A stretch of DNA of 64,000 nucleotides from Candidatus Omnitrophota bacterium. Lineage in GTDB: Bacteria; Omnitrophota; Gorgyraeia; Zapsychrales; Fredricksoniimonadaceae. Location of the stretch: assembly GCA_044225175.1 (NCBI GenBank), contig JBGAJA010000005.1, positions 17,869-81,868 of the forward strand. Direction: 5' to 3'. Below, piece after piece: positions 11,382-52,981 of the stretch; the stretch's first letter is position 1, and every line of letters starts with the position of its first letter. The position numbers and the translations under genes were made by a program. The notes beneath the pieces are model-generated. The model ran no database searches, was not told the DNA's origin, and saw only the letters and a program-made list of their open reading frames with translations.

Positions 11382-12509
11382 TTATATTTTTTTCACCATC
11401 TCATTAACAACCGCACCCGCATGTGTAACCAACGCACCTTTAATAATGTCGTCTTCAACATTCAATTTGAAAGCCTTTGTATCTTTATCCCAGTATTCTT
11501 CAAGCAGGTTGTGAAGGTTAGCAGAATACATTTGAGATGCATTGACTGCAACTTTGCCTGGCAGATTACCTAAACCAATAATGCGAACACCATTTTCCGT
11601 GATGATTTCTTCGTTCGCTTTAGATCCTTCAACATTACCGCCAGATTCGACAGCCATATCAACAATAATACTTCCAGCTTTCATTTGAGCCACCATGGCT
11701 TTAGAAAGGACTACAGGGGCTTTGCGGCCGAAGAGTTGAGCGGTTGTAATGACGACATCAGACTGAGCACAAACTTTAGCCATGCCCTCTTGTTGTTTTT
11801 GGATTTGTTCGGGAGTTAAAGCTTTAGCATAACCTTGAGCGGTTTGTCCTGTTTCTCCAAGGTCAATTTCAACGAATTTGGCACCCAGAGATTGAACTTG
11901 TTCTTTGACAACAGGGCGGGTGTCAAAGGCTTCCACGCGAGCACCCAAACGTTTGGCGGTTGCAATAGCTTGAAGACCAGCAACCCCAGCGCCAATGATA
12001 AAAACGCGGGCTGGTTGAATGGTGCCAGCTGGAGTCATCATTAAAGGGAAGATTTTTTGTAAGCGTTCAGCAGCTAAGACGACCATAACATAACCGGCTA
12101 AGTTAGCTTGAGAACTTAAAGCATCCATTTTTTGTGCACGGGTTGTGCGAGGAATCATTTCCATGGAGATGGCACTGATGTTATTTTTAGCTAGTTCTTC
12201 AACGAGAGACTTCTCGTTAAATGGATCTAGAAAAGAGATGTGAAGGGAACCTTTTTTAAGCTGTGAGACTTCTTCTAAAGGGGGCTTACGTAAACGAAGG
12301 ATGATATCAGCATTCTTTAGGATATTGGATCTGGAATCTATGGTTGCTCCAACCTTTGTAAATTCACTATCTGGAGCACCGATAAAGGCTCCCAAACCAC
12401 TTTCAACAGCAACTTGGGCTCCTTTTTTAACCAAACGATCAACCGAAGAAGGTATAAAAGCGCAGCGTGTTTCGCCAGGGTGACTTTCTTTAAGAACTCC
12501 GATCATCAT
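11382..12509 (-). CDS. pntA: NAD(P) transhydrogenase alpha subunit part 1 (soluble NAD(H)-binding domain)
   Basis: 375 aa. Alanine dehydrogenase/PNT N- and C-domains. GAGVAGLQA Rossmann motif. Confidence 0.9.
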   Translation of the reverse strand: MMIGVLKESHPGETRCAFIPSSVDRLVKKGAQVAVESGLGAFIGAPDSEFTKVGATIDSRSNILKNADIILRLRKPPLEEVSQLKKGSLHISFLDPFNEKSLVEELAKNNISAISMEMIPRTTRAQKMDALSSQANLAGYVMVVLAAERLQKIFPLMMTPAGTIQPARVFIIGAGVAGLQAIATAKRLGARVEAFDTRPVVKEQVQSLGAKFVEIDLGETGQTAQGYAKALTPEQIQKQQEGMAKVCAQSDVVITTAQLFGRKAPVVLSKAMVAQMKAGSIIVDMAVESGGNVEGSKANEEIITENGVRIIGLGNLPGKVAVNASQMYSANLHNLLEEYWDKDTKAFKLNVEDDIIKGALVTHAGAVVNEMVKKI

Positions 12510-12649
12510 AAAATGTCCTCAAAAGGGATTAAATTGTGTTGGAAACTTTTCACATAATCTAACAAATTAACCCTCCAGTCAAGGATCAATTCAGAAAAAG
12601 CCTTCAGTTGGCTATATATATAAATATAGGGTATACTTTTTCCAATTCT

Positions 12650-15600: not shown

Positions 15601-18600
15601 CGGAAGTTATACGGCTCAAGTTTTAATGCATGCAGGTAAGATTCCTTCAGAAAGATTAACAAAGTTTCAGTTACATGTGGGAGCCTATCAACGCGCAATA
15701 GATGAAGAGAAAATAATTACAGCAGAAATGCAAAGAATTTGGAAAGAGTCGATTCACAAAGAACTCTCAGGGCTCCCTCGAATCAAAGCCGCCTTTAATC
15801 CGCAACTATTATTAAATAAAAGAATCTCAAAAGGTCCATCCAAACCATTAGGAGCGGAATATCGCAATCTAATCCTCACATATGCGTATGAGTATTATGG
15901 AGAAAAAGAAGAAGCTTCGATAAACCCGGCTATGGCTTCCAATCTGGGAAACGTTTCTGTAGCAGAGAGAGCTTCCTATCTTGTTTATCGATATTTATTG
16001 TTGGCTTTATATCAACTGCGTGGAAGTGGTGAATATTTGGATCGTCGTGCAATCATGGATCATTTAATGAAAAATTCAGATTATAAAAGGGAGGTTTTTA
16101 ATCCTAATTCAGGCTGGGTTGATATTAATTTTAGGAAAACTGGCATTTTAGGAGTGGGTCTTATTATTAAAATGCCAGATGAGAAGAAATTTAAGTTAAC
16201 AGAAGCCGGAATTGCTTTTATGGAACGATCTTATCGATTAACAGGTGATGCTTTCATTTTAGCTTTAAAAGATCAACAAAAACAATATGCTCAAGGTTCA
16301 ATAGATTCTAAGAGCGGGGAAGATCCTGTTGAACTGGTTAGATATCCCAAAGATTTCAATATTCTTAATAAAGTTAAACTAAAAATTGCTATTGCGGACA
16401 GCGTTGTTCAAAAGACAGTCGATTCTAAATTACAATATGTGGTTAATTTAGAAGAGGTAATTGAGAAATATTCTGAAGGATTATCGCCTAGATACTTAAT
16501 ACAAGCACAACAACTTTCTAAGTTAATAGAAAAACAACTTGTAGCCTTTGGCTTTACCAAGGCTAGAGATATGGGTCTTGATAAATCAAATTTATATAGT
16601 AGAGACCGTTCCTATAATCTTGATTTGATTGCAAATCCAAACATCATTAGAACCCAAGATGAAATAAATTTTGAACCTTATCGCAATTTTCTACTTGCTT
16701 TGCATAGGCTCAATTCTGAAGAAATAAAAGATTCCTATAGCCCTCAAGAGGTTTGGAAAAAGATTCAAGTGCTCTCGCGAGAAATGGAATTGCAAGTAGT
16801 GTTTTCTTCGGTAACTGCAAAACAACTTAAAAGTGCTTATGAATCTATGGCTCAAAGGGGTGTTTTATTAATAGAAAGAACTGAGAAAGGGTATAGGTTA
16901 AGTTCTGAAGGATTGAAATTCATGCAAGAAAATGGGAATTTGATAAAGGAAAGTTTGCTTAAGGCTCTAAAAAGACATTTGTATGATATAGAACAATACG
17001 AGTTAAGAAGGGAATGGTTAAGATTGCCGCAAGCTGGTGGGACATTGAACAATGCTCCTACAGGTGATCAAGTTTATAAACCTAAGTTATTATCTGAAGT
17101 TGAATTCAGAAGTATAGAAGAAATATTCGAAGCGTCATCGCACCCAGAAGTAGGCCAGTGGTTAACTTCTCAAGATATTGTTGCTTTTGAAGGACATCAA
17201 ATTGGCAAGGACAGAATTCTTAAAGCTTTAAAGTCTCCTTTTAGAACTAGTCTTGAGAGTATGGGATTGGCAAATACAGTTTTTTATCCTGTCAAAGTTA
17301 ATCAACCCATGTTAATTCAGAAAGATTTTGAGCAATTAATCAGCAAAAGAAAAGATGAAGGAAATTTCAATATTCTCATTTATCAAATTGGACTAGGTGA
17401 GGAAGGTTTTCTTGAAACTAGAGATATTTTTAACGCTTTAAAAAATGCGTTTCATCAAGCGGGGATATCTCAAGAAGATCAACAAAAGTGGAAAGTTACA
17501 TTTATTGGTGTTGATGTCATTAAAACTATTGTGGATGATTTTATTCAGAAATTTTCTGTAAAGACTGATTTCCAGAGCAATATTTTGACCATTAGAGCGG
17601 ATGCTTTGGTAGAGGACCAGATGAGATGGTTAGGAGAGAAGTTTAAGTCAGATTATTTGTTCTTTCGTAATGTAGCCTATGGAAATTATCGAGCGTCTAG
17701 AGGTCATTTAAAAAGCTATATCAATGTTGTAGAGACGCTTGCTATTTATCTGGGTACCAAAAATATACTTAAACATCTAAGTGTTCCAGAAACTCGTTTT
17801 GTAATTGAGCCTGCCCAAGAATTTGAAAACACCCAGAATTATGTCTTCCATGCCCCAGGAACACGCATCGTAACATTGAAACATTATGATCCCACAAAAG
17901 AATTTTTAGATCTAAACAATGTGATTAACACAGGGACAGGAATATATAAGGTATTAGATCCAGGTGCAATGGACAGAGAAGGTCTGCAATATTTTCTTGA
18001 TCATGTTACTGAATTTGAAAAGCCTGTGGCTGACCAAGCTCAAAAGGCCCCCTCTCTTTCTAGTTATTCTACTTTGAAACTTAATGATCGCAGCAATTTA
18101 TCAATGACCCTTATAGGCTCAAATCCAGGATCTCGAGCAGATTATATTAAGGTGGGGAATAGGAAAGACTATAAGTATGGATTTACTCGAGAAGAATTGC
18201 TTCAGCGTGAGGCGGCTTTGATGCAGGTGTTATCGACAGATCAAAGATATAATCAAATAAGAAAATATCTTCCAGTTTTTAAAGGTTTGGGACGTCTTGA
18301 TATTTCTGATGTACGTAATGTGATACCGCGTCTGCCTAGGCGTTCTTCAATTCCAGATGTTCCTCCGAGGTTTTTTCAAGAAGAGGATTTCTTAGGTTCA
18401 TATATGGTAACAGAGGATGCTGGTGATCCGATATATGCTATTGCCAATGAAGTTAGGGAAGGAAAACTGACCGAAGATGACTTGTTGAAAACAATGTCCT
18501 TGTTAGTTCAATCAATCTACGATTTTCATCATGCTGGGATTGCTTTTGGAGACCTCACTCCAGATGAAATTTTTATAGCACCCTCTACAGAGAAGGTGAC

Positions 18601-26060: not shown

Positions 26061-26158
26061 TTCTAATTTTTCCAAATAAAACGTTTTCTCAAATCCCCTT
26101 TTTAGGGCTTGTAAGTGACTTTATATATGGCATATTTATATAAAGGTAAGATACACCT

Positions 26159-29100
26159 ATGCGAAGACTAATAGTCGCTCTAATCTTGGTTTGCTTTATT
26201 ATAAGCTCTTTGATTCCTATGCCTGCCAATGCCCAGGAATTTGCTTTGCCTGTCCCTGGGACGATGATTCATCTAAGTTCCCAATACACTCCAGCCCATT
26301 TAGCTGGCCTTGTGATCCACCCCGAAGATCCATTCAAATTTGATTTTTTAATTCATCGTGGCGATCAATTCGTAGGGGATGGGCTTGCCCCATCCCAAGA
26401 AGGGCGAATGCAAGATTCGCCCCTACAAGATAAACAGGTGGTCTATTCAAAATTAATTAAATACTTCCTAGCTTCACTAACCGTCCCCGATGAAGACCAA
26501 TGGGTAAATTTATCTCCCTATGAGAAGGAGCGTATCATTAATGAGAATTTTGGTAAAACAGAGATGGGGCGAGATCTGTTGGCCCAGGACTATCTATTGA
26601 AACAGATCACCGCATCCATGATTTATCCCCAAGACAAGTTAGGAGAGAAGTTTTGGGAGAAGGTGTACAGGCAAGCATGGGAGAAGTACAAGACAACCAA
26701 TATCCCAGTAAATACGTTTAATAAAGTATGGATAGTTCCCGATGAAGCAGCCGTGTACGAATCAGGGAATACAGTGTATGTGTTAAAGAACCATTTAAAA
26801 GTCATGTTAGAAGAAGATTACCTAGCCAAGAAAAAGGTGTCTGACACCTTTTTGGATGGAGCAGGTGTTAAAAAGGTGTCAGACACCTTTTTGACAAGCC
26901 AGGTGATGCGGCAGATCATTTTGCCGGAGTTGGAGCGTGAAGTTAATGAAGGGAAGAACTTTGCAAATCTTAGGCAGATCTATAGTGGGATGATCTTAGC
27001 TACATGGTACAAACGAAGCCTTAAGGAATCCATTCTTTCTAAAGCCTATGCCAATAAATCGAAGGTCAAGGGGGTCAATCAGGTTGATACCAAGGCCAAT
27101 GAGGATATATATCAGCAATATTTGAAATCCTTTAAGAAGGGAGTATTTAACTACATCAAAGAGGATGTGGATAAGTATTCGAAACAGGCTATTCCTAGGA
27201 AGTATTTTTCAGGTGGAATGACCCATGGGTTAGAGAAAGTGAATGTTTATAGTTCAGATAAAGCCATGCCGGCTGAATATCGTCCTGATGCCGCGACGCT
27301 ATCAGGCCTTGATATAGCTCAGGTATTACTAAGAACGGATAGGGAAATAACAGATATAAGAAATGATGCTAGTAGAAGAATAGACATCAATTTGTCTGAA
27401 TTTATTTATAAATTCTTGTTAACTAAGTCAGGAATATACAGATTATTTAAAGGAAATCCCCCTATTCAAATGTCTAGATCATGGAACATCAAAAGAGAAA
27501 AGAAGAGTGAAGATCAAGAATTGCCAGACCGTAGTTATTATGAGCAATTGAATGATGAAAATGATGCTAAATCTTTTGATGAATTGATGGCGCAGCTATT
27601 GCCTCAAGTCCTAAATAATAAGATTCCAGGCATTCTTTATAAGCCCAATCAAGCAGGAAATGGGCGAGGAATATTCTTTATTGAGAGAAATTCAGAGGGT
27701 GGTTTAACAGTAACAATGCTTTCAAGACCAAAAAGACAAGGAGAGTTGTCTCCAGAGGAACTTACTCAGATTCTTAGTCCTGGTATAGAAGTCCGAACAA
27801 GTTTAGAAGAAGAAATCATGCAGTTTGATCTTCCAAAGACTATGGGTGAGAATCGTCACAGAGAGATTTTAAAGAATTTGTGGAGTTATTTATCGACAAG
27901 AGAAGGAGCTTATGATTCTGGCATCATTCAAGTGATGGAGTCTTTTGTAAAGGTTTCCAACCCGCAGGAACACAAGCGTCGTGCCTTTGATACTAGGTTT
28001 GTATTTCATGGAAATTTATCTTCTGGACGTATTAAATTTATTTCTAATGAATCAATTGGAAGGGTAGGTTCTTCGTCATACTTTTCTAATTTGGGTGGTA
28101 GTCCCAATCTTTCAGATCATCCTTATGGATTTAAAGGGGAATCAAGGCCGTATTGGTATAATAGCCAGGATATGTTTAAGCCTGTATTTGATGCTTTTCC
28201 AGAGTTGTTTGATTCTTTTAAGAATGCAAAGGCTTCTGAGGAGAAAAGAAAATTTATTGCTGACACCTACAAAAGACTTGAGGAACAATTTAGATACTTA
28301 ACCGAACGATTAAAATCCACTGGAGCTAATTTAGATTTAATGGTGGATGGACAATTTGACTTAATGTGGAAGAAACCCTTTAAAGTCGGGGATTTTCCTG
28401 AGCCGATTTTGGTTGAATCATGGATCAATCTATTAGATCCAGGAAAAGATTTGTCTGGAATTAAGTTTCAATTAGAAGCGGATAAAGATCATGCTATGGT
28501 GATTGCTGTTGGTCAAAAAGAGAAGTTTATACTTCCTCATGGGGTATCGTGGATCAAAATAGGAGAAGTTCCTATTGAAGTCACTTGCAGAGCTAGTGAG
28601 ATTTATTTGAATGCCTATAGGATTGGCTGGCATGGCCCTATTTTAAAAGATGGTTCAATCGATTTGAATGATTTAACTAATACACAAGTGCCTATTGTGG
28701 TTAATAGGTTGCCAGGTAATACCAATATATTAATTATAGAAAATAAATCGTACGAACCTTTAGGAGTTATTCCAAATTATTCAGAAGAATCATTAGGAGT
28801 TAAAAGGCATGGATTGGCTTTGTTTAAGGATCAATCATCTATTTTGTTGTTTAAGAAAGGGCGAGAACAAGATTTTATAATCATGGGGGATTACTTTAAA
28901 GTCAAATTCTCTCAAGAGGGCATTTATTTCTCATCGATGGCATTTGGAATCGAAGATGATTTTATAAAACAAGGAGAGTCGAAGGATTATGACTTGAGAA
29001 ATGGGACAGCTTTTACACTTGAAGTTTCATCTCATGATCCTCGCCGCATCATTATTAGAAATAAACGTACCATCCCATTATATATTTCCAATATTCCGGG

Positions 29101-32100
29101 TATTGAAGATATGTCTCATATTAAAGGTAAAAATATTTTCACATTTCAAAGAACAGAACAACGGAAGCCAATTAAGATCAATGGAGTTCCTTTTACCATA
29201 GAACGTACGGGTGATTCTTTTTTTGTAAGATCCCCATTCTATGAGGGATTCTTATCGATGCGTCAGCAAGAGTCTTTAGATGTTCGTATTCCAGATCAGC
29301 CTCAAATTAATCAAAAAGCTTTTCAGATTAGATTTTTGATTCCAAGCGGTGGGTATGACTTTGTTATTCTGAATCTGACAGAAGAATCTTTGATTATTGA
29401 GGAAGATCAAACTTCAGCTATTTGGATAGGGGATCGAAAACCTTCTCCTTTATGGAAAGATTTAGAGGAAACTTTAATTGAAGTGGAAGGCCAAAGTAAA
29501 AATGAAGTTAATAAAGCAGTGAGGCTGTTGAAAGAAAAGCCTATAACAGTGTGGAAGATAGGCGTCTATGAGGGTAGATGGACTCAAGATATTGCAAGAA
29601 GAAATGAGAATATAGGACTAATTGTAACTGAGAATTTTTCTGCACAAACTAATTCCAGGCCTGGAGACTCATTGGATGATTGGAGGCGAGGATCTTTGGA
29701 TGTTCAAATACAGCAACCTGATAATTTAGCTGTCCTTAATGGTTCAGTTCGCAGTATCCTTAGTAATATGCCGGATAATTCTTTAGATACTATTATTTTT
29801 GAGAATACTGAAGCACGCAGTTTTTCTGAAGGCCAGGAAGTAGTTGTTTTAGATGGGAGAGATAAGCAAAGAACGTGGACTTTTCTAAGTAGGAATATTT
29901 CTCTCGTGTTGAGAAAATTAAAGCCTGGTGGAAAATTGATTATTGCGCCGTACCATTTATCTAATACTTATCAAATAGCAAATAATGAATTCTACAAAAC
30001 TTGGCAGAAAAGTGAGACTCCAGGAATAGATTTCACGACAAGAAAATCATATTGGGCTTATTCTAAGGACATTGCAGTTCTGATTAAAGACAGTGCAATG
30101 AAAGCGGATCACAAGGAAGATATTATTTCAGTTGAACAGTTCAGAAAAATTATGAGCAGGGCTATTTTAAGAGCAGACCCTAATATTTTTGAATTTAAAG
30201 ATAGAACGGCATCTTTTTTTAATGCTTTTTTAAATGCATTATTAGAGCATGACATTAAGAAGGGAAGATCAGCTTCAGAGGTAATGATGGCTATATCGCA
30301 AATCATTGATTTGTTGCAGCCAGAGAACTTTACTAAACATACATTTACCAATCCTGAAGCATATGTGCGTGAATGGGTGGAGGATTATGCTCCTTATTTT
30401 AAAGAGGATAAAACTTTTGAGAAATCAGCTATTGTGGCCCTTAAGTATTTATTGAAAAATCCAGAACATCAAAGTACAGAAGCTGATGATGAGGGATTTG
30501 AAGATACGGTGGACCCAGACCAAAATGTTTCTTTCAATGATCAAGGAGCTAAATTGCTTAAAATGGCTTTTAATGCTTTGCAGTTATATGTAAAGGCTAA
30601 GGCCAAGATGAAAGCTATTTTACAAAGATTCCCAAAAATTGAATCGATGGAATTGTATCCGAATCATACCTCAACAATTTTTCTGGATAAAAAGTACCCA
30701 CAGGCACAAATCTTTTATTTAAATGGGATGGAAGCTTCTGTACAACGAGATGATCAGGGAGATGTTTTTTTATCGATTCCTGAAATTGAGATTCAATCTA
30801 AAGAAATTGAACAAGGAGGATTTGTTTCTTACGATATAAGAGGAGTCAGTGTTGGGATCCAATTATCAGATTATACAGATCGTGTGGTTATTAAGAACTT
30901 GAACCCAATGGTACCCATGGTTCTAGCCATCGAGAATTTACCAGCCATTGTTGAAAGTTCTTCTATATTTAATGAAGAGCAAAATTCTTTGAATGACTCT
31001 TTTTTTCTTCCCTGGCGTGAGAGAGCCACACTTTCTTTTTTCGGAAATGAAAATACTGAGAAAGAATTTCAGTTAAATGGAAGGGTTTTTAAGGTCCTTT
31101 TCTTATCTAAAGGTAGTATTTTATTACAGCATGGCAGCTCAAATGAATTTATTCCCTCGAAAAGTTCCAAGATAATTTCTCTGCCTGCAGATGAAAAGAG
31201 TAATAATTCTCTTAATGTCAGCATATCATCTCCTCAAGGACAGTTAAAATTGACAATTGTGAATCTAAGTGAGCAATCCTTAAAAATTGAAAATAAATTT
31301 AATCGCTTAGCGGACGTGGCGCGAGATTCTGAGAAGATCGTTATTAGTACAATTGAGCAAGTAGAAGAAATTGCCAAATCTTATGTGCAAGATACTCGTT
31401 TAGGAGAACAAATGGTTAAGGACACGAATTTGGGGGAAGATGATTTGATTGTAGTTTTGACATTTATTCTTCTTGATAAATATTTAAATGAGAAAAATAT
31501 AGATTTAAATATTGAAGATCCCCAGCAATTAACTCGGGAAGTCAAGAAGCGCGCCAAGAATATTAAATGGCGAGAGTACCTCGTTAAGAAATTTAATCTT
31601 AAGCAGAGAGGTCAAAGAAATAATAGGGGTAGTAGCAGGAATGAAATTATAAATCCTTCTTATGAAACTTCAGATTCTCTAAATACCTCAGGGCAGATTA
31701 CACATGGTGAGTTTTATGCGCGATTACAGATGTTAAAAGAGGGGTTAAGAGCATTAATAGATTCTTGGGAAACACGACAGGAATACTCGGACACTTTTAG
31801 AGAAGAAAGTACTATAAAGTTCTTACTTACCACGGAAAATTTTCTTAGAGTTATTCAAACTTTAGATAATGATCGTGTCAATATTGAGAATTTAAGTCTT
31901 GAGTTTGGTTTTGAATCAGCTGGCTTTATAAATAATCTTAAGAAGTCTATTGAATCCAATGCCATACAATCGGAAGTAAGTTACATTATCAATACGATTG
32001 CTCTGATTTTAGGAATGGATAAGAAAAATCCTAATTATTTTTATACGATGACAGGGGATGAAGATGATAAATCCCTTAAAGAACTTACAATTTATAAACA

Positions 32101-32371
32101 TGCTAAGCAGATTTCTAGAATTAATGGGAGTGGAAGTCATGATGCGGCTATGGTTGCGTTGAATAAAGGAGGTATTGATTTTAATTCGTCCAATTTAAAT
32201 CTTCAAATCAAACGTGATGGCAAGGGTGTGCCATTGCCTTTTGCCCAGCAAGATATGGCCCAAATCAATAATATTGAGGGCTTTGTGCCAGTGATTCTAG
32301 AGATCAAACCTGCCGGTAACTTGCCTTTTTTTTCCGAACTTCAGGCGCAGAATAAGTTTGCGACTAGATAG
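26159..32371 (+). CDS. Giant secreted multidomain protein, paralog 2. Conserved N- and C-modules with a central region containing a TTL/ATP-grasp-like motif and a possible methyltransferase-like motif
   Basis: 2070 aa. Signal peptide MRRLIVALILVCFIISSLIPMPANAQE. N-module about 60% identical to paralogs 1 and 3. KPNQAGNGRGIFFIE resembles the tubulin-tyrosine-ligase/ATP-grasp P-loop. LKPGGKLIIAPY resembles MTase motif III. The C-terminal GGIDFNSSNLNLQIKRDGKGVPLP... is shared with paralog 3. Confidence 0.8.
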   Translation: MRRLIVALILVCFIISSLIPMPANAQEFALPVPGTMIHLSSQYTPAHLAGLVIHPEDPFKFDFLIHRGDQFVGDGLAPSQEGRMQDSPLQDKQVVYSKLIKYFLASLTVPDEDQWVNLSPYEKERIINENFGKTEMGRDLLAQDYLLKQITASMIYPQDKLGEKFWEKVYRQAWEKYKTTNIPVNTFNKVWIVPDEAAVYESGNTVYVLKNHLKVMLEEDYLAKKKVSDTFLDGAGVKKVSDTFLTSQVMRQIILPELEREVNEGKNFANLRQIYSGMILATWYKRSLKESILSKAYANKSKVKGVNQVDTKANEDIYQQYLKSFKKGVFNYIKEDVDKYSKQAIPRKYFSGGMTHGLEKVNVYSSDKAMPAEYRPDAATLSGLDIAQVLLRTDREITDIRNDASRRIDINLSEFIYKFLLTKSGIYRLFKGNPPIQMSRSWNIKREKKSEDQELPDRSYYEQLNDENDAKSFDELMAQLLPQVLNNKIPGILYKPNQAGNGRGIFFIERNSEGGLTVTMLSRPKRQGELSPEELTQILSPGIEVRTSLEEEIMQFDLPKTMGENRHREILKNLWSYLSTREGAYDSGIIQVMESFVKVSNPQEHKRRAFDTRFVFHGNLSSGRIKFISNESIGRVGSSSYFSNLGGSPNLSDHPYGFKGESRPYWYNSQDMFKPVFDAFPELFDSFKNAKASEEKRKFIADTYKRLEEQFRYLTERLKSTGANLDLMVDGQFDLMWKKPFKVGDFPEPILVESWINLLDPGKDLSGIKFQLEADKDHAMVIAVGQKEKFILPHGVSWIKIGEVPIEVTCRASEIYLNAYRIGWHGPILKDGSIDLNDLTNTQVPIVVNRLPGNTNILIIENKSYEPLGVIPNYSEESLGVKRHGLALFKDQSSILLFKKGREQDFIIMGDYFKVKFSQEGIYFSSMAFGIEDDFIKQGESKDYDLRNGTAFTLEVSSHDPRRIIIRNKRTIPLYISNIPGIEDMSHIKGKNIFTFQRTEQRKPIKINGVPFTIERTGDSFFVRSPFYEGFLSMRQQESLDVRIPDQPQINQKAFQIRFLIPSGGYDFVILNLTEESLIIEEDQTSAIWIGDRKPSPLWKDLEETLIEVEGQSKNEVNKAVRLLKEKPITVWKIGVYEGRWTQDIARRNENIGLIVTENFSAQTNSRPGDSLDDWRRGSLDVQIQQPDNLAVLNGSVRSILSNMPDNSLDTIIFENTEARSFSEGQEVVVLDGRDKQRTWTFLSRNISLVLRKLKPGGKLIIAPYHLSNTYQIANNEFYKTWQKSETPGIDFTTRKSYWAYSKDIAVLIKDSAMKADHKEDIISVEQFRKIMSRAILRADPNIFEFKDRTASFFNAFLNALLEHDIKKGRSASEVMMAISQIIDLLQPENFTKHTFTNPEAYVREWVEDYAPYFKEDKTFEKSAIVALKYLLKNPEHQSTEADDEGFEDTVDPDQNVSFNDQGAKLLKMAFNALQLYVKAKAKMKAILQRFPKIESMELYPNHTSTIFLDKKYPQAQIFYLNGMEASVQRDDQGDVFLSIPEIEIQSKEIEQGGFVSYDIRGVSVGIQLSDYTDRVVIKNLNPMVPMVLAIENLPAIVESSSIFNEEQNSLNDSFFLPWRERATLSFFGNENTEKEFQLNGRVFKVLFLSKGSILLQHGSSNEFIPSKSSKIISLPADEKSNNSLNVSISSPQGQLKLTIVNLSEQSLKIENKFNRLADVARDSEKIVISTIEQVEEIAKSYVQDTRLGEQMVKDTNLGEDDLIVVLTFILLDKYLNEKNIDLNIEDPQQLTREVKKRAKNIKWREYLVKKFNLKQRGQRNNRGSSRNEIINPSYETSDSLNTSGQITHGEFYARLQMLKEGLRALIDSWETRQEYSDTFREESTIKFLLTTENFLRVIQTLDNDRVNIENLSLEFGFESAGFINNLKKSIESNAIQSEVSYIINTIALILGMDKKNPNYFYTMTGDEDDKSLKELTIYKHAKQISRINGSGSHDAAMVALNKGGIDFNSSNLNLQIKRDGKGVPLPFAQQDMAQINNIEGFVPVILEIKPAGNLPFFSELQAQNKFATR
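26831..26893 (+). repeat. Two tandem in-frame copies of the 24-bp palindromic element (AAAAAGGTGTCTGACACCTTTTTG / ...GTCAGAC...) inside giant paralog 2, encoding the duplicated peptide KKVSDTFL
   Basis: Copies at 26831-26854 and 26870-26893, separated by 15 bp. Identical to the intergenic hairpin at 9613-9636. They sit in a linker that is hypervariable among the three paralogs. Confidence 0.75.
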
Positions 32372-40036: not shown

Positions 40037-41371
40037 ATGAGCAGGTCAGAGGCAAAACAAGAAAAAGAAGAAAAAGAAAACGGTAATGGTGATTATAAAC
40101 CCGCTAATCCTGGCGGTAAGACAGTCAACATTGAAGAGCTTAAAGAAATGAAAATGGCTGAATTGACAAAATTAGCCAAAGATCTGGACGTCCAAGGGGC
40201 CAGCAGCTTAAAGAAACAGGACTTGATTTTTAAGATCCTCCAAGCCCAAGCAGAAAAAGAAGGTTTGATGTTTGGACAAGGAACTCTTGAAATCCTTTCC
40301 GAAGGATTCGGGTTCTTACGCTCTGCTAATTACAATTATCTCCCATGTCCTGATGATATTTATATATCTCCATCTCAAATTCGTCGTTTTGATTTAAAGA
40401 CAGGTGATACTGTTTCTGGCCAAATTCGTCCACCCAAGGAAGGGGAAAAGTATTTTGCCCTTTTAAAAGTGGAGGCAGTCAATTTTGAAAATCCTGAAAA
40501 GTGTAAAGATAAGATTTTCTTTGATAATTTAACTCCGCTTTATCCTAAAGAACGTTTAAATCTGGAAACAACTCAAAACGAAGTTTCCACACGTATTATT
40601 AATTTATTAACTCCAATCGGAAAAGGCCAGCGCGCCTTGATTGTTGCTCCTCCATATAGTGGTAAGACGGTTATCTTACAAAAGGTGGCTAATGCCATCG
40701 TTCAGAACCATCCAGAAGTGATTCTTATTGTTCTTCTGATTGATGAACGTCCTGAAGAAGTTACTGATATGCAGCGAAGTGTTAAGGGAGAAGTTATCGC
40801 CTCAACGTTCGATGAACCTGCAGAACGTCACGTTCAAATTGCAGAAATCGTCATTGAAAAAGCCAAGCGTTTGGTTGAACACAAACGTGATGTGGTCATC
40901 CTGCTTGACTCGATTACTCGTTTGGCCCGTGCTTATAACACTGTTGTTCCTCATTCCGGAAAGATTCTATCTGGTGGTGTGGACTCAAACGCCCTACATA
41001 AGCCAAAACGATTCTTTGGTGCTGCCCGTAATATTGAAGAAGGCGGGTCACTAACAATTATTGCTACATCCTTAGTTGATACGGGAAGCCGTATGGACGA
41101 AGTTATCTTCGAAGAATTTAAAGGTACTGGTAACATGGAATTGCAATTGGATCGCAACTTATTCCAACGTCGTATTTACCCTGCAATCGACCTTAAACGT
41201 TCCAACACTCGTCATGAAGAGCTGTTGGTTGAAGAAGGTGATTTGCAGCGCGCTTGGCTTTTACGTAAGGCCTTCAATGACCTTAATGCAGCCGAAGCTA
41301 TGGAACTTTTGATCAATAAGATCTCTAAGTACAAGACTAATACAGAGTTTTTGCAGAATATGAATAAGTAG
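40037..41371 (+). CDS. rho: Transcription termination factor Rho
   Basis: 444 aa. N-terminal cold-shock-like RNA-binding domain; Walker A GKT ([11 protein letters not shown]) and a RecA-like ATPase domain. Confidence 0.9.
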
Positions 41372-41421
41372 GCAAAAGATCCTTTGTTTTTTTGGAAACA
41401 TTAAGAGGAAACAAAGTATAC

Positions 41422-41450
41422 TTGCAAAGTATGACCAAATAGGGTAGTAT
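41422..41450 (+). promoter_or_regulatory. Candidate sigma70-type promoter for rpmE-prfA: TTGCAA, 17-bp spacer, TAGTAT
   Basis: Hexamers at 41422-41427 and 41445-41450. A structured leader of about 100 nt follows before the rpmE RBS (GGAGG). Confidence 0.3.
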
Positions 41451-41551
41451 ATCGCCCTTTGAAAACACAGGTTGATTCGCCACAGGCGGATCAAATTCTA
41501 TCCCGTCAAAGCGGGCCGCCTCAAGCGGAAAAATACCATGGAGGTAGGACA

Positions 41552-41755
41552 ATGAAAGCTGAAATTCACCCAAATTATGAAGAAACCACAATTAGCTGTG
41601 CTTGTGGAAACATTATTCATACGCGTACAACCAAGAAGAACATCCGCGTTGAAATCTGTTCCCAATGTCATCCTTTCTTCACAGGATCCAAGAAATTAGT
41701 GGATACTGCAGGCCGTATCGAGCGATTCAACAAACGTTATGCTAAAGGAAAATGA
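41552..41755 (+). CDS. rpmE: 50S ribosomal protein L31
   Basis: 67 aa. [27 protein letters not shown]...[10 protein letters not shown] zinc-ribbon L31 signature. GGAGG RBS 8 nt upstream. The N-terminal extension in the ORF track is spurious. Confidence 0.9.
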
Positions 41756-42830
41756 TCAGGCCAAGCTAGCTAAGGCCGAAGAGCGCTTTCATGAGTTAGA
41801 AAAGCTTCTAGCTGATGAAAGCGTCATCTCTGACCAAAGTCAATACGGAAAACTCGCTAAAGAGTTTTCCGAGTTGACTTCTCTTATGGAAAAGTACCAC
41901 GCTTTTCTGAAAACAACATCCCAAATTAAAGAATTACAAGACATTCTCAAAGATAAAAGCCAGTCGGATATGAAAGAACTGGCTGAATTAGAAATTCAAG
42001 ATTTAAAGCCAAAAGTTGAGGCTTTAGCTTCAGAATTAACTGATTATTTTGACCCTTCCAAGAATGAACCCGATAAAGATATTATTATTGAAATCCGTGC
42101 CGGCACAGGCGGCTTGGAAGCGTCTTTATTTGCTGGGGATCTGTATCGCATGTACAGTAAATATGCAGATCTTAAAGGATGGACTTTGGAAGTCATGTCT
42201 TACGTTACAACGGAAGCAGGGGGAGTCAAGGAAGTTTCCTTTTCATTAAGTGGGAAAGAATGTTCTAAGCGATTAAAATGGGAAAGTGGTATACATCGGG
42301 TGCAAAGAGTTCCTACCACAGAAGCTTCCGGCCGTATTCATACGTCAGCAGTCACGGTTGCGGTTATGATGGAGCCTGAGGAAATTGAATTAGAAATTCT
42401 CCAGAAAGATTTAAAAATTGATGTGTATCGTTCTTCTGGTCCAGGTGGACAAAGCGTTAATACTACGGACTCTGCTGTGAGAATTACTCATGGACCGACA
42501 GGGACAGTAGTTGTGTGTCAAGATGAACGGTCTCAATTAAAGAATAGAGCCAAAGCCATGCGCATTTTGAGGGCTAGAATTCTTGATAAAATGCAGCAGG
42601 ATGCTTTTGCAAAAGAAGCAGCGCTTCGTAAAGCTCAGGTTGGTTCAGGTGATCGCAGTGAAAAGATTCGTACTTACAATTTTCCTGATAGACGTGTGAC
42701 AGACCACCGCATTGGGTTTACCAGCCATCAACTCGAATCGATTCTTAATGGGAATATGGATGAGTTGACGGATGCTTTGATGGTGGCGGAACGCGAAGCT
42801 AAAGAACAGGCTGGTTTGAGCAGTCAATAG
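41739..42830 (+). CDS. prfA: Peptide chain release factor 1
   Basis: 363 aa. GGQ motif ([19 protein letters not shown]) and a PxT-region motif. Confidence 0.9.
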
Positions 42831-42979
42831 AAGATTATCACTAATCTTTATATATAAAATTTCCATAAAGTATTAATTAGCAATAGTTTAACAATAAACA
42901 GGTAAGCGTTTTCTCAAAAGCTCTTAGGAGCGATTGACAAGGCTTGCCCTGTGTTGCACACTTGTAGTAATTAATAAGT

Positions 42980-45900
42980 GTGGAGAGTAATATGAAAACC
43001 CCAAAAGCCATTTCTATTATTGTTTTAACAGCCTTCTTGACAACATCTCTCAATATTTCCGGGTATGCTAAAGACGTTTCGTTATTACCCGCTCCAGGTG
43101 TTATGGTTCACTTAAGCCCTGAATTTACTCCTGCCCATTTAAAAGGAATTGTTATTCACCCTGATAATGCTCTTAAATTCGATTTCATCATCAATAAAGG
43201 CGACAAGCCTTTAGATGAAGTGACAAAAAAGGCAGAATATACCAAACTTATTAAATATTTTTTAGCTTCCTTAGCCGTGCCTGATGACAATCAATGGGTC
43301 AATCTTTCGCCTTATGAAAAGAACCGTATTATTAAGGAAGACTTTGGAAAAACTGAAATGGGGCGAGATTTACTAGCGCAAGATTACCTACTTAAACAAA
43401 TTACAGCTTCTTTAATATACCCTCAAGACAAGTTAGGCCAGAAATTCTGGGATGAAGTTTATGCAAAAGCCCAGCAGCAATTTGGCACAACCAATATTCC
43501 AGTTAATACGTTCAATAAAGTTTGGATTGTCCCAGATGATGCTGTGATTTATGAAAAAGGTAATACAGCATATGTCATTAAGCATCATTTGAAGGTCATG
43601 CTAGAAGAGGACTATTTGTCTTTAGGAAAGCATGGTGGTATTCAGGAAAAATCGATCCGTGATTCCAATAAAGCCCATGCGATCGGTTCACAGGTCGTTC
43701 GTGAAGTTGTTTTACCTCAGCTTGAAAAGGAAGTTAATGAGGGGCAAAATTTTGCTCCTTTAAGACAGGTCTATAGCGGTATGCTCCTAGCTGCGTGGTA
43801 TAAAAGAGCTTTAAAGGAATCATTGCTTTCAAAGATCTATGCGGATAAATCCAAAATTAAGGGAATCAATCAGGACCCTAAGAACAATGAGGCTATTTAT
43901 CAGCAGTATCTCAAGGCTTTCAAAAAAGGTGTATTTAACTTTATTAAGGAAGATGTGGATAAGTATTCGAAGCAAACTATTCCAAGAAAGTACTTCTCTG
44001 GTGGAACAATTGGGGATGGTGCCATGTTTGCCAAGGTAGTGCGTATTATAAAGACCCTTGATCCGGCTCAAGCAGCCAGTTTAGCTAAATCTCTTGCAAG
44101 CGATGACTTAGCTCAAGTAATGGCTCATGAGACCCAAGATTCAGCTATGAGTGGAACAGAAGTCAATTTCTCTTGGAATAATGGAAAGAATTCATTCCAA
44201 GTAAAAAGAGGTACCATGTTAGGTGGTTATAAACTACATAATATCCTTATGAATGGTAAGCCAACTACAGTTAAGCTTGGCAATTTACAGGGAAGTATCC
44301 TTAGAATAGAAGGGGCTGAAACGTTGATTATTGGAAAAGATAAAACATCCAATCAATATGTATTTATTACGGGTGATCGTGATCCAAGTATGCCAAGGAA
44401 CACAGTGTTTTATTTTGAAGAAGGTAAGGGCTCTGCTCCGAATCTTTTAGTAAATAAGTCTGTTAGGAATGGAAATTTTGAGACGATTGCAATATTAATG
44501 CCTGCTCAAGGAGTAGTTGGTAAACAAGCATTGGATGTACAGAATTTTTCTGATCCTTCTTTGCTACTCAGTGATGAGACTGGTTCTCAAAAGTTACCAG
44601 TTGGAAAACAAATAAAAGTCTTAGATTATGCTCAATTAACCAGTAAAACTGCTGGCCAAGCCCTGTCAACATTGGATTTGCCTCCCGCTATACCTATGCC
44701 TGGTGCCACAGAAAGAACTATAAGGCAAAGAATTATAACGGATATTCATGTTGCTCACGTGTTAGATAGAATCAGGGAAAAAACAAACAGAGAGCCTGAT
44801 CCTGGTGTTTTAGATGGCTTTATAGATGTTGTACGGGAAGAGTCCAATGATATAAGGGCTATTGAATTAGCCATAGAAGCTATTTTAGGGGCGCATATAG
44901 AAGATGAATATTTGATGGATTCTTTTTTAACAGAGTTAAAGAAGATAGATTCCACTGAGAGTGCTAATAATTACATTTATTTGTTATCTGGAATGCTGAA
45001 AGACATGTCTGGTTTAGAATTAAGTATGAATGAAAAAGTTCGTAATGTGATCTTGAATCTATTCTACATTCAAGGTTTAAATAGTGCTCCAGAATTTAGA
45101 AGTCAATTTGAAAAGTGGTTAAAGAGATTTATAGAAATAGGTCGAAAGGGTAGAAGTGATGTAGAAATCGATCCTATGTGGCAGGATATCAAAGCAGAAG
45201 ATAAGGAAGTCTTTCAATCTTTGCCATACTCTATAGGATTAAGTCTCTACAAGGTTCGAATTGCTATGCAGTCAAATCTTCATATCAATGAAGCTTATAG
45301 AGATTACGAATCAACCATCAATATGGTTAATCAAGCAATTGCTCCACAGGGTGCTTCACAGAAGGTTCTTCCATCGAGCTTGGTTGTAGGAACAGAAGCG
45401 CTAATTCTCAATAGTTTTCTAACTTTAATCCCATTTGTTCTCGATTCATTAAATTTATTAATAGATGATTTTAAGAGTACAAGTGTGGATGACAAATTGA
45501 CACGTGTTAAAGATCTATTAATTAAAGTTGAATTTTTGCACGGAAAAATGATACAGGAGATTTCTAGTGAAAGTATTAATGGCGGTATGGGACTTTCTCA
45601 AAGGGGGAGGGATTTAAAAGAGCTGTTAGGAAATGTAGACGATCTGAAAGTGTTTCTTGATGAGGAAATTGCGAAAGTCGAGCTAATGTTGGGCGAAAGA
45701 GGTAATATGCATCAAATAGATCGTAATAAATATAGCGCTCAACGATTGAATCGAACATTAAGAATGGTTTTTTATTCTTTTAAGAAAAGATGGAGAGGTT
45801 TATCGTCTAAGTTAGATAGCCAAGGAATAGAAATTGAAGATATAGATAATGTATTTCGTCTTAGTTTAAAGAGACAAGAAATTGTTAATGAATTGATCCA

Positions 45901-46795
45901 AGAACATTTATCAGTAGAGGGGGCAGAAGTTGATTCTACATCGTCCCTTAAAGAAATAGGAATGTTTGATGATGATGTTATTTCTATGTTAGATATTTTA
46001 GAAGAGAGATATAGATTTGTTGTGCCAACGCAAGACATTAAATTATTTAGAAATAGACTTTCTGATGAGAAAAACAATTTAACTGTGAATGATTTTTATG
46101 CCTTGATTGAGCCTTATTGGTCTACTGATGAAGCTATGTCAGTGTTTGAAGTAAAAAAACCTATGGATAAAACGATACTTAAAGAACCTAAAAGACTTCG
46201 AGTTTTAGATTTATTGCAAGCCATTGAAGAAAAACCGGCCTCACTTATAGAAGATAAGCTGCAGGCTAGAGATTTGGCAAAAGAAATTAAAGCTGTGATA
46301 GATATGGCTACTGATCTTAGTAAGTTGAAGAGTGTATTAGAAGGTATGTGGTATGAAAACGAATACAAAGCTATCCCAAAAGAAATTCCCGAAATTAAAC
46401 AGAGTCTTGATTTAATCGATGAAATTTTTCGATTAAGAGAGCAATTATTGGTTAGCTCAGATTCGAAGATTCTTGATGATGTTATCAGCATAAAAAATCA
46501 ATTAAGTAGGCTTGTCAAAGAGGCGGTTAGGAAGGATATGGCGGATGACGCAATGAAATCTATTGAACCTCAGTATAAAGATCCCTTAGGTGGTATTGAT
46601 TTAAATGCTGCGAATTTGAATTTACAGATTAAGCGTGATGGTAATGGGGTGCCTCTTCCTATTAGTCAGCAAAATTTAGAAAGTATTCATATTGAAGGAC
46701 TGATTCCAGTGATTTTAGATATTAGACCTGCTTTGGGAGCGCTTCTTTTATCTGAATTAACCTCTGGTGTACCTCAATTATTAGCTAAAAAGTAA
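42980..46795 (+). CDS. Giant secreted protein, paralog 3: conserved N- and C-modules with a distinct central region of unknown function
   Basis: 1271 aa. Signal peptide; N-module LLPAPGVMVHLSPEFTPAHLKGIVIHPDNALKFDFII... paralogous to 12650.. and 26159... C-terminal GGIDLNAANLNLQIKRDGNGVPLPISQQNLESIHIEGLIPVILDIRPA shared with paralog 2. Confidence 0.8.
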   Translation: MESNMKTPKAISIIVLTAFLTTSLNISGYAKDVSLLPAPGVMVHLSPEFTPAHLKGIVIHPDNALKFDFIINKGDKPLDEVTKKAEYTKLIKYFLASLAVPDDNQWVNLSPYEKNRIIKEDFGKTEMGRDLLAQDYLLKQITASLIYPQDKLGQKFWDEVYAKAQQQFGTTNIPVNTFNKVWIVPDDAVIYEKGNTAYVIKHHLKVMLEEDYLSLGKHGGIQEKSIRDSNKAHAIGSQVVREVVLPQLEKEVNEGQNFAPLRQVYSGMLLAAWYKRALKESLLSKIYADKSKIKGINQDPKNNEAIYQQYLKAFKKGVFNFIKEDVDKYSKQTIPRKYFSGGTIGDGAMFAKVVRIIKTLDPAQAASLAKSLASDDLAQVMAHETQDSAMSGTEVNFSWNNGKNSFQVKRGTMLGGYKLHNILMNGKPTTVKLGNLQGSILRIEGAETLIIGKDKTSNQYVFITGDRDPSMPRNTVFYFEEGKGSAPNLLVNKSVRNGNFETIAILMPAQGVVGKQALDVQNFSDPSLLLSDETGSQKLPVGKQIKVLDYAQLTSKTAGQALSTLDLPPAIPMPGATERTIRQRIITDIHVAHVLDRIREKTNREPDPGVLDGFIDVVREESNDIRAIELAIEAILGAHIEDEYLMDSFLTELKKIDSTESANNYIYLLSGMLKDMSGLELSMNEKVRNVILNLFYIQGLNSAPEFRSQFEKWLKRFIEIGRKGRSDVEIDPMWQDIKAEDKEVFQSLPYSIGLSLYKVRIAMQSNLHINEAYRDYESTINMVNQAIAPQGASQKVLPSSLVVGTEALILNSFLTLIPFVLDSLNLLIDDFKSTSVDDKLTRVKDLLIKVEFLHGKMIQEISSESINGGMGLSQRGRDLKELLGNVDDLKVFLDEEIAKVELMLGERGNMHQIDRNKYSAQRLNRTLRMVFYSFKKRWRGLSSKLDSQGIEIEDIDNVFRLSLKRQEIVNELIQEHLSVEGAEVDSTSSLKEIGMFDDDVISMLDILEERYRFVVPTQDIKLFRNRLSDEKNNLTVNDFYALIEPYWSTDEAMSVFEVKKPMDKTILKEPKRLRVLDLLQAIEEKPASLIEDKLQARDLAKEIKAVIDMATDLSKLKSVLEGMWYENEYKAIPKEIPEIKQSLDLIDEIFRLREQLLVSSDSKILDDVISIKNQLSRLVKEAVRKDMADDAMKSIEPQYKDPLGGIDLNAANLNLQIKRDGNGVPLPISQQNLESIHIEGLIPVILDIRPALGALLLSELTSGVPQLLAKK

Positions 46796-46800
46796 TTTTA

Positions 46801-47562
46801 ATGACTGAAGATGAACTGATTTTGACCCATATTCTTGGTATTTCCCGCAGTGAGCTTTATTTACATAAGCCTCAATTGACCGAACTTCAAGAGAAACAAT
46901 TCCAATCTTATAAAGCTAGAAGACAAAAGGGAGAGCCTTTGCAGTATATTTTTGGGGACTGTGATTTTATGGGGCTTGAATTGAAGGTTGATCCAAGAGT
47001 CCTTGTGCCTCGCCCTGAGACGGAGATATTGGTTGATTTGGCTATTAAGAAATTTCATGGTGCTGAAATTTTAGATATCGGAACAGGATCAGGAAATATT
47101 GCTATTGCTTTAGCCAAGCATTTTCCAAAAGCCCATGTGATAACAATTGATGTTTCCAAGGATGCTTTGGATTTAGCTCAAGAGAATGCAAAGATTCACT
47201 CTGTGAGCAGCCAAATTGGTTTTATTCATACCAGTATTTTTGATTATGTTCCAAGTAAGAGATTTGATTTTATCATTTCTAATCCACCGTATATTCCAAG
47301 CGGAAAAATCCTCACCTTACCCATTGATGTTCAACAAGAGCCTCACTTAGCATTAGACGGTGGCATGGATGGGTTAGACTTTTACCGTGCTATTATAAAG
47401 ATGATTCCAGGCTTGATAAGACCTAAGGGTTGCCTTATGATGGAATTTGGTGACGGACAGGGTTTAGCAGTCAAAGACCTCGTACACGCGCTCCAAACAT
47501 TTTCAAATATTCAAATCCACAAGGACTTAACAGGCAGAGATCGTATTATTAGTGCAGAATAA
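46801..47562 (+). CDS. prmC: Release factor glutamine N5-methyltransferase (PrmC/HemK)
   Basis: 253 aa. DIGTGSGNIAI motif I and the NPPY motif (IISNPPYIP). Confidence 0.85.
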   Translation: MTEDELILTHILGISRSELYLHKPQLTELQEKQFQSYKARRQKGEPLQYIFGDCDFMGLELKVDPRVLVPRPETEILVDLAIKKFHGAEILDIGTGSGNIAIALAKHFPKAHVITIDVSKDALDLAQENAKIHSVSSQIGFIHTSIFDYVPSKRFDFIISNPPYIPSGKILTLPIDVQQEPHLALDGGMDGLDFYRAIIKMIPGLIRPKGCLMMEFGDGQGLAVKDLVHALQTFSNIQIHKDLTGRDRIISAE

Positions 47563-52916: not shown

Positions 52917-52981
52917 ATGCTGATAGACACCAAAATAAGAAAAATGGTGCCTGTCACCATTTATTCAATTAGAATATTTCC

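Follow-up and report, generated by a model that had tools for sequence, protein, structure and literature searches.

A gene of a variable-cargo Omnitrophota protein family between prfA and prmC

In a stretch of 64,000 nucleotides from a Candidatus Omnitrophota bacterium (GenBank contig JBGAJA010000005.1, positions 17,869 to 81,868 of the forward strand; hereafter the window, whose own numbering is used unless another locus is named), the gene for peptide chain release factor 1 (RF1), prfA, is separated from prmC, the gene for the release factor N5-glutamine methyltransferase, by a long gene that we call giant paralog 3, or giant 3. We consider it probable that a single gene of the family to which giant 3 belongs entered the prfA-prmC junction in one particular lineage, that it brought an upstream module of its own, that prmC is now read through from upstream, and that the inserted gene encodes an exported protein of modular build.

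The prfA-prmC junction in the window and in relatives

Both genes that border the insert are intact. The product of prfA (41739-42830, + strand) matches TIGR00019 at 467.6 bits (cutoff 423.25) and NF001859 at 475 bits (cutoff 400), contains the PCRF and RF-1 domains, and is 75-88% identical to RF1 of Candidatus Omnitrophota metagenome-assembled genomes; that of prmC (46801-47562, +) matches TIGR03534 at 273.5 bits (cutoff 199.1) and the PrmC_N and MTS domains, and from its ATG on the gene can be aligned at the 5' end with the prmC genes of relatives. In the junction alignment, prfA ends with a TAG stop codon (42828-42830) in place of the ATGA overlap of relatives, and the 3,970 nt that separate the two genes (42831-46800) run exactly from that stop codon to the ATG of prmC. 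They are made up of a spacer of 161 nt and 31% GC (42831-42991, +), giant 3 itself (42992-46795, +; 3,804 nt from ATG to TAA, 1,267 amino acids, a single intact long open reading frame (ORF)), and a second spacer of 5 nt, TTTTA, that was read directly and was negative in terminator scans (46796-46800, +). The ORF list offers an alternative GTG start at 42980, but ATG 42992 is favoured by the Shine-Dalgarno sequence GGAG 6 nt 5' of it (42982-42985, +, read directly), by the classic signal peptide that follows, and by the public gene call. A preliminary description of this DNA had placed a 3.8-kb giant-family gene between prfA and prmC, and the profile matches bear out both the identities and the boundaries of the genes; its upstream region of about 150 bp is AT-rich as described but longer, and the gap before prmC is 5 nt rather than the 6 nt that had been given. 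The word giant holds in a relative sense only, as the protein is a member of 1.3 thousand amino acids in a family that spans 0.7-2.8 thousand, and is not of the >20-kb ORF type for which the phylum is known.

The identical protein and neighbourhood are found on a Logan assembly contig and on the 186,673-bp NCBI contig. Because these two assemblies agree, and because a different genome (locus L005; L numbers denote related loci) has a collinear junction from prfA into a family gene, the split arrangement is not an assembly artefact.

In bacteria prfA and prmC (hemK) form a pair, as in the hemA-prfA-prmC operon of Escherichia coli. The window retains much of this arrangement, in that RF1 and PrmC are intact and are encoded in their customary order on one strand, with flanks that match those of relatives (rho, rpmE, murA, trpGDCF), but the two genes lie 3,970 nt apart whereas in most relatives they overlap by ATGA. 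We read the junction in 47 metagenome loci and in 27 loci from a genome collection. ORF lists were combined with degenerate DNA patterns for three targets, namely the N-terminus of prmC, its NPPY motif and the WVNLSPYEK motif of the family, and the contig counts are approximate. About 46 of about 64 related contigs show either the ATGA overlap or a gap of no more than about 350 nt, followed by murA-trpG-trpD-trpC-trpF (examples are L002, L003, L004, L010 and L015), and prfA and prmC are contiguous in the Methylobacterium outgroup loci too. Since contiguity is the norm among related contigs, the split state is derived. This synteny comparison agrees with the earlier view that rpmE-prfA-prmC is usually contiguous and that the giant gene was acquired by, or expanded into, a housekeeping operon.

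The nearest relative in prfA is L005 (80.3% nucleotide and 94.9% amino acid identity over 774 nt), whose contig carries prfA, an intrinsic terminator, a spacer collinear with that of the window, the start of an ORF (MTPCAPK...) and the same promoter module; the spacers between prfA and the family gene are about 60% identical in the two loci, a value estimated by eye that was neither computed nor tested against shuffles. The next nearest, L002 (78.0% and 91.5% over the same 774 nt), retains the ATGA overlap, and L098 (75.2% of nucleotides over the same 774 nt) has the order prfA, terminator, prmC. Because L005 shares the insertion and L002 keeps the overlap, the sequences place the insertion between two splits, the earlier one from the L002 lineage and the later one between the window and L005, and it is not strain-recent on this comparison. 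An old arrangement, conserved among relatives and with a terminator ahead of prmC, would speak against an acquired gene; we looked for one and found the insertion shared by the nearest relative, L005, only. A single assembly, CAZOXU01, holds both L002 and L005, that is, one prfA contig without and one with the insertion; as it contains two different prfA contigs, this bin mixes two populations. We also considered whether a decayed copy of the 5' end of prmC lies directly behind prfA as a footprint of insertion, and rejected this, as local alignment was no better than that of shuffles (p 0.5-0.9).

Extra DNA of at least 0.5 kb lies at the prfA-prmC junction in at least 18 contigs, and its content differs widely: a vapBC-like toxin-antitoxin pair in L014 (11159-11740), an IscB/HNH fragment in L016 (2894-3559), an EF-G-like fragment in L008 (11095-11684), a 690-aa TPR membrane protein in L076 (9102-11174), 5.6 kb of glycosylation-type genes in L080 (8890-14332), and several further, uncharacterised inserts of 0.5-1.6 kb. 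Other family members, with different cargo, occur there too. L007 has one whose ORF begins 93 nt after prfA; L050 has an ORF6N gene, a 2,401-aa family gene (11808-19013) and then prmC after 17 nt; and L063 has a TPR gene followed by a family gene. The junction is a recurrent landing site of accessory genes and is not specific to the family of giant 3. Because it recurrently receives accessory genes, we take the position of giant 3 to reflect tolerance and opportunity and not a functional tie to translation termination.

The prfA tree (a tree of one gene, without support values) shows the occupied junctions scattered, and the conserved N-terminal domains (N-domains) of junction-resident family genes are 55% identical to each other, compared with 56-62% between paralogues of one genome. 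For these two reasons independent insertions appear to fit better than one ancient insertion followed by many precise losses. The latter is the alternative that survives best, though we consider it unlikely: a family gene at the junction would have been ancestral to an Omnitrophota clade, would then have been lost from most members, and would have had its cargo replaced in those that kept it. In its favour, five contigs from different parts of the prfA tree (the window, L005, L007, L050 and L063) have a family gene after prfA, and L007 and L050 resemble each other significantly in the promoter regions upstream of theirs. However, the genes are adjacent in some 46 contigs, many of them with the exact 4-nt ATGA, and each loss would have to recreate that overlap; the resident N-domains are no closer to each other than paralogues within a genome; the best N-domain matches to giant 3 (74-76%) lie at unrelated loci; and unrelated accessory genes occupy the same junction. 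Positional orthology was rejected in a separate comparison, in which the three closest N-domain relatives examined (P0010, P0024 and P0039) all lay at other loci.

Comparative genomics knows hot spots of chromosomal integration (islets) that lie between conserved core genes, and the prfA-prmC junction resembles them in being one core-gene junction with accessory content that differs by genome. Unlike islets, the site in the window has no tRNA, integrase, att-like repeats or transposase, and the insert lies inside what appears to be a single transcription unit. Border-spanning direct or inverted repeats, such as a target-site duplication or terminal inverted repeats, were sought and gave only short chance matches, and no transposase, integrase, recombinase or tRNA was found within or next to the insert in the window. 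The comparison of GC content and codon usage between insert and flanks that had been proposed as a check indicates a native composition and does not flag the gene as foreign: its GC content (0.358), its GC content at third codon positions (GC3, 0.283) and its distance in relative synonymous codon usage (RSCU, 0.082) fall inside the range of the other 38 window genes, and we rejected a foreign origin on compositional grounds for this reason.

A recent horizontal transfer, with a distant donor and a mobile element as vehicle, is accordingly a quite improbable account. It could draw on the slightly higher AT content of the insert (GC 0.358, against 0.42 for prfA and 0.388 for prmC), on the phage- or mobile-type ORF6N gene beside the family gene in L050, and on the IscB-like fragment in L016. 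Composition and borders, as just described, speak against it, as does the fact that the named family matches are all from Omnitrophota or Omnitrophica among the matches listed; moreover, the insertion is common to the window and L005, whose prfA genes are only 80% identical in nucleotides, which argues that it is not recent. Recent gene conversion between the window paralogues was rejected as well, because their nucleotide identity is 64-74% and extends over short stretches only. The N-domain-coding parts of the three paralogues differ in GC3, with 0.52 in paralogue 1 (12650-13702), 0.46 in paralogue 2 (26159-27217) and 0.345 in giant 3, compared with about 0.31 as typical of the genome; differing ages, differing origins or an expression-linked bias are possible reasons for the raised values in paralogues 1 and 2.

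The upstream module and the expression of prmC

The preliminary description had credited giant 3 with an upstream region of its own and a TTGACA hexamer at about 42936. We located this hexamer at 42934-42939, where it forms, with a 17-nt spacer and CACACT (42957-42962), the putative promoter of the inserted gene (42934-42962, +), and it aligns with the -35 element of a promoter architecture that is common to family genes of many genomes. The layout, TTGnnn, 17-19 nt that often end in TGn, (C/T)A(C/T)ACT and a short leader, recurs upstream of 13 or more other family genes in all: at g1 and g2 in the window, at L006, L007, L010, L013, L014 (three genes), L027 and L050, and also at L054, L056, L057 and L063. 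In L014 the sequence is the identical TTGACA-N17-CACACT, and the upstream regions of L007 and L050 align well above shuffles (p <0.002). Such a shared architecture is better evidence for a candidate promoter than a lone hexamer. L056 and L057 (5925-6000) carry two paralogues from one metagenome sample, at different loci, that are almost identical over about 75 nt upstream; because the two share promoter and leader at different loci, the unit that was duplicated includes the promoter.

Another promoter-like site, TTGGAA-18 nt-TATACT (41392-41422, +), was found by consensus scan and by the pattern TTGnnn-N16-19-yAyACT within the gap between rho and rpmE, upstream of rpmE-prfA. Because the same type of -10 element precedes rpmE, yAyACT would be the general promoter style of the organism and is not limited to family genes.

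Upstream of the putative promoter lies a palindrome-like element, GTAAGCGTTTTCTCAAA (42902-42918, +; ideal form GAAAACGTTTTC), with GTAAGCGTTTTC at 42902-42913. In a subset of family genes the 12-bp palindrome GAAAACGTTTTC, usually followed by TCAAAA, stands 12-15 nt upstream of the -35 element. The window has two matches with no more than 3 mismatches (26077-26093 and 42902-42918), each immediately 5' of a family gene; others are at L005 1554-1569, L006 17302-17317, L050 11738-11753 and L054 5936-5951, and across 104 loci the strict palindrome pattern occurs exclusively upstream of family genes. It is from this placement upstream of family genes, and not from the number of matches, that the palindrome draws its weight as the candidate operator of a family regulon. 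An Rfam scan of the spacer 42831-42991 gave no match (E up to 1).

Neither the generic terminator scan nor a scan of the whole window revealed an intrinsic terminator on either side of the insert, towards prfA or towards prmC; searches of its 3' part with the generic and the organism-style pattern turned up nothing promoter-like that could serve prmC; and no Shine-Dalgarno sequence precedes prmC. Because no terminator was found on either side and the gap is 5 nt, prmC, and probably murA and the trp genes, would be transcribed through the insert, which is in keeping with the suggestion that giant 3 may be co-transcribed with translation-factor genes. Translation of prmC probably reinitiates after the stop codon of the insert.

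We picture the course of events as follows. The gene would have arrived, or would have been built, together with the family upstream module, whose order is palindrome-like candidate operator, TTGACA, 17-nt spacer, CACACT, short leader and GGAG, and the spacer 42831-42991 would have come in with the insert. Since then prmC, and probably murA and trp too, may have been transcribed from the promoter of the insert, by read-through from rpmE-prfA, or by both, and reinitiation at prmC may have replaced the ATGA coupling to prfA that relatives retain.

Of the neighbouring genes, rho (40037-41371, +) lies upstream of rpmE, which encodes ribosomal protein L31 (~41552-41755, +; PF01197 and NF000612 match residues 32-97 of the ORF 41459-41755) and overlaps the start of prfA with its 3' end. 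Downstream of prmC follow murA, trpG and trpD, all on the + strand with gaps of no more than 18 nt. In many relatives a family gene lies farther on, behind trpF and a gene that encodes some 350 aa, at a distance of about 6.6-7.3 kb from prfA (L006 ~17396, L013 ~8615, L027 ~18133, and also L066, L067, L069, L070, L082 and L090); the corresponding post-trp site in the window (52917-52981) holds no family gene. The intrinsic terminator of L005 (1467-1490; AATGGTGCCAGGCACCATT, then TATTTT) stands directly after prfA, where the window has none, and a similar hairpin is present in the window at 52940-52964, in the gap after a trp-linked 356-aa ORF where several relatives carry the family gene. The idea that these two hairpins trace a relocation from the post-trp site was dropped, as the pattern was seen in no other locus.

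The inserted protein and its family

Giant 3 is paralogous to two other window ORFs (12650-21100 and 26159-32371), with 56-62% identity over about 345 N-terminal amino acids, and the three family genes together make up about 29% of the 64-kb window. They share their strand with nearly every other gene of the window and are separated by short gaps from housekeeping neighbours. The translation of giant 3 opens with a predicted Sec signal peptide, MKTPKAISIIVLTAFLTTSLNISGYA, followed by KD (42992-43069, +; by inspection of the translation); the leaders of the window paralogues are equivalent, ending in AxA and then Q. Next comes the conserved N-domain of about 320 aa (43070-44026, +), with the motifs WVNLSPYEK, GRDLLAQDY, FNKVWIVP and RKYFSGG, then a member-specific cargo of about 840-850 aa that is orphan sequence (44027-46543, +), and finally a conserved C-terminal tail (46544-46792, +; DDAM...GGIDLNAANLNLQIKRDGNGVPLP...IPVILDIRPA...). 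Over about 60 aa this tail is 60% identical to that of the ORF 26159-32371 (at 32168-32341), and it is kept in the family consensus, GGI[DN]xN...PVIxxIxP, which giant 3 shows at its extreme C-terminus. The middles of the three window paralogues yield no alignment between them. Across the family, members combine a Sec signal peptide, an N-domain of about 340 aa, a central cargo of their own and a tail of about 65 aa.

The N-domain is up to 76% identical to proteins of other genomes, and its alignment (29 sequences, one distant member included) has 24 invariant columns and about 90 more that are at least 90% conserved. The database search (E up to 1e-5, with 8,000 candidates scored) matched at least 4,444 proteins; among the matches listed, query coverage was about 26-37%, with none above 37% except the protein itself, and all the named family matches were Omnitrophica or Omnitrophota entries called 'hypothetical protein', so that the family is, as far as seen, restricted to Omnitrophota. 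Density is about one family gene per 20-40 kb, with nine exact-motif matches in about 330 kb of related loci, a length that is estimated. Family genes are found among unrelated housekeeping genes elsewhere too, such as between ribF and mraZ or between an ABC transporter gene and tatAC. The Pfam domains in the cargo are diverse across the family (LMWPc, LysM, PP2C, methyltransferases, REC, cNMP-binding, HD and PP-binding) or absent; the middle of the first window paralogue has a histidine phosphatase, a kinase-like domain and a methyltransferase, and that of the L050 family gene carries NUDIX. We did not find the family described in the papers on giant proteins of Omnitrophota (bioRxiv 10.1101/2023.11.21.568195; PMC10066038; bioRxiv 10.64898/2026.06.07.730766).

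Giant 3 itself gave no match in Pfam (E up to 0.1), NCBIfam, PADLOC or a PDB sequence search. When its cargo (aa 346-1194) was searched with HMMER against 1.84 billion representative proteins, a single match was returned (E 5.7e-11), limited to cargo residues 27-88 beside the N-domain. The protein has no cysteine and no internal repeats, and a moderately hydrophobic stretch at about aa 797-824 is the sole one besides the signal peptide. AlphaFold2 models the N-domain as mixed helices with a beta-hairpin (pLDDT 63, pTM 0.60), and Foldseek found no significant neighbour for this model in the PDB (best E 0.13). The top rows of that search were pore formers of the ClyA/Nhe/Hbl type and type III secretion tip proteins, but these are non-significant (E >=0.13, TM ~0.1) and we do not count them as evidence. 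For the C-terminal tail AlphaFold2 gives no confident autonomous fold (pTM 0.24) and shows no beta-sandwich; the tail is without a terminal transmembrane helix and basic cluster, and scans of the whole protein with NCBIfam and Pfam returned none of the curated C-terminal domain (CTD) or sorting-signal models (T9SS CTD, PEP-CTERM, LPXTG).

With a cargo so poor in homologues, one may ask whether the middle of the ORF is real coding sequence at all, or whether the ORF is a decaying pseudogene or an artefact that fuses N-domain and tail. We regard this as very improbable. Although the 850-aa middle is almost without homologues and has no recognisable domain, 1,267 codons without a stop, in DNA of some 36% GC, go far beyond what chance would give, N-domain and tail, both conserved, share one reading frame, and the codon usage of the cargo matches the genome (RSCU distance 0.099); because of these three features giant 3 is almost certainly translated, as judged from its sequence. 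In addition, the identical protein is present in two assemblies, and variable, often unannotated middles are the rule for the family.

The motif [D/N/S]-x-A-M recurs at module boundaries of the family. It is found at aa 342, 383, 1046 and 1185 of giant 3, at aa 367, 777, 1311 and 1995 of giant 2 and at eight sites in giant 1; in 24 of 28 family proteins it occurs no more than 80 aa after the N-domain, in 13 of the 28 no more than 30 aa before the tail, and the AM dipeptide was observed 107 times in these 28 proteins against 43 expected. They may be linkers or serve as sites of processing. In L050, the family gene of 2,401 aa looks like a fusion of two exported units, as a tail-like GGIDLN motif in its interior is followed by a signal of twin-arginine type (TRRRFTQGVVAGIAGAWALA).

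Interpretation and significance

A number of points count against the lineage-specific insertion of a self-promoted gene for an exported protein, and we gather them here. The L005 contig, on which the dating of the insertion leans, is only 1.7 kb long, with an N-masked stretch and some 20 nt of the downstream ORF; the prfA tree is of one gene, built by neighbour-joining without support values; and duplicates of one population may occur across the two contig collections, making the counts approximate. Upstream of the gene, CACACT matches TATAAT at 3 of 6 positions and the generic sigma-70 scan did not call the site, two palindrome matches in the window are not significant on their own, as 14 of 100 shuffled sequences had two or more, and the palindrome is absent at g1, L056 and L057. 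The terminator scans speak to intrinsic terminators only and not to Rho-dependent ones, and rho is encoded nearby. As regards the protein, the signal peptide was judged by eye, no homology supports a function, and the N-domain model is moderately confident and without a structural neighbour. Promoter activity, operator and co-transcription, like the export and function of giant 3, are what we infer from the sequence.

Even so, an exported modular role is suggested by the signal peptide of giant 3, by the way in which its family keeps both ends while the payload varies, and by the large copy number of that family. By analogy, the protein is most likely exported and would act on a partner cell, or else at the envelope or surface of the cell, and this is the weakest part of our reading. 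Least probable of all is that the position itself is functional, with giant 3 expressed together with RF1 and PrmC and acting in, or regulated with, translation termination: prmC is 5 nt away on the same strand with no terminators found, and family genes recur after prfA in several genomes, but giant 3 has a signal peptide and no translation-related domain, family members are scattered among many unrelated housekeeping genes, at about one gene per 20-40 kb several occurrences at this junction are near chance expectation, and unrelated genes occupy it in other genomes.

The giant ORFs described from Omnitrophota exceed 20 kb (>10 thousand amino acids, or more than about 7-10 thousand as a lower bound for the type; size criterion in PMC10066038) and are of Archaeovorin and Dockerin type. 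They encode C39 or S8 peptidase domains and many transmembrane helices (PMC10066038; bioRxiv 10.1101/2023.11.21.568195), with a type II secretion-like locus upstream and pilZ genes downstream (bioRxiv 10.1101/2023.11.21.568195). Giant 3 resembles them in phylum, in being a large and (here by prediction) exported protein, and in its few or odd domain annotations; the cargo of its family includes enzyme domains of cytoplasmic type (kinase, NUDIX, methyltransferase, REC), and the papers report similar types. It differs in that its gene is 3.8 kb long and encodes 1,267 aa, and in its conserved N-domain and C-terminal tail. No C39, S8 peptidase, dockerin or TSP3 domain was found in giant 3 (Pfam, E up to 0.1), and no type II/IV secretion-like locus or pilZ gene lies beside it, the neighbours being rho, rpmE, prfA, prmC, murA and trp.

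MARTX toxins and polymorphic toxin systems combine conserved delivery modules with swappable payloads. The family of giant 3 is like them, as an analogy only, in its conserved terminal modules, its variable payload and its many paralogues per genome; unlike them, it is conserved at both ends and not at the N-terminus alone, and its delivery role is only predicted. Pfam and NCBIfam found no RTX, Rhs/YD, PT-TG or toxin domain in giant 3, and no immunity gene or dedicated secretion genes lie near it, the next gene, 5 nt on, being prmC.

The prfA-prmC split alone is ordinary genome plasticity: an accessory gene settled at a permissive junction and has probably rewired the transcription of the gene for the RF1-modifying enzyme, of murA and of the trp genes. 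More interesting is the family, with its promoter and operator module and its orphan cargo: it is apparently undescribed, with at least 4,444 matches, fixed ends, free cargo, and no counterpart in Pfam, NCBIfam or PDB. A host-dependent lifestyle has been proposed for Omnitrophota (PMC10066038), and the exported modular role suggested here would fit it, by analogy with effectors and not as a claim of membership among them. Tentatively, and well short of what we would argue for, one could envision a phylum-wide system of effector diversification in which N-domain and C-terminal tail form a shared scaffold, for delivery or processing, of hypervariable payloads, newly arisen orphans such as the 850-aa cargo among them, with processing at D-x-A-M and a shared GAAAACGTTTTC operator in a subset of the genes. 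If so, the system would serve a host-dependent or predatory lifestyle and would take a large share of small Omnitrophota genomes, and its genes would be free to settle inside essential operons, bringing a promoter but no terminator. The uncultured Omnitrophota have small genomes and are believed to live in dependence on other cells, and the family, given the coding capacity that it takes up, is an obvious candidate for interaction with such partners; the 850-aa orphan cargo of giant 3 is, besides, natural material for the question of how new protein sequence arises and persists.

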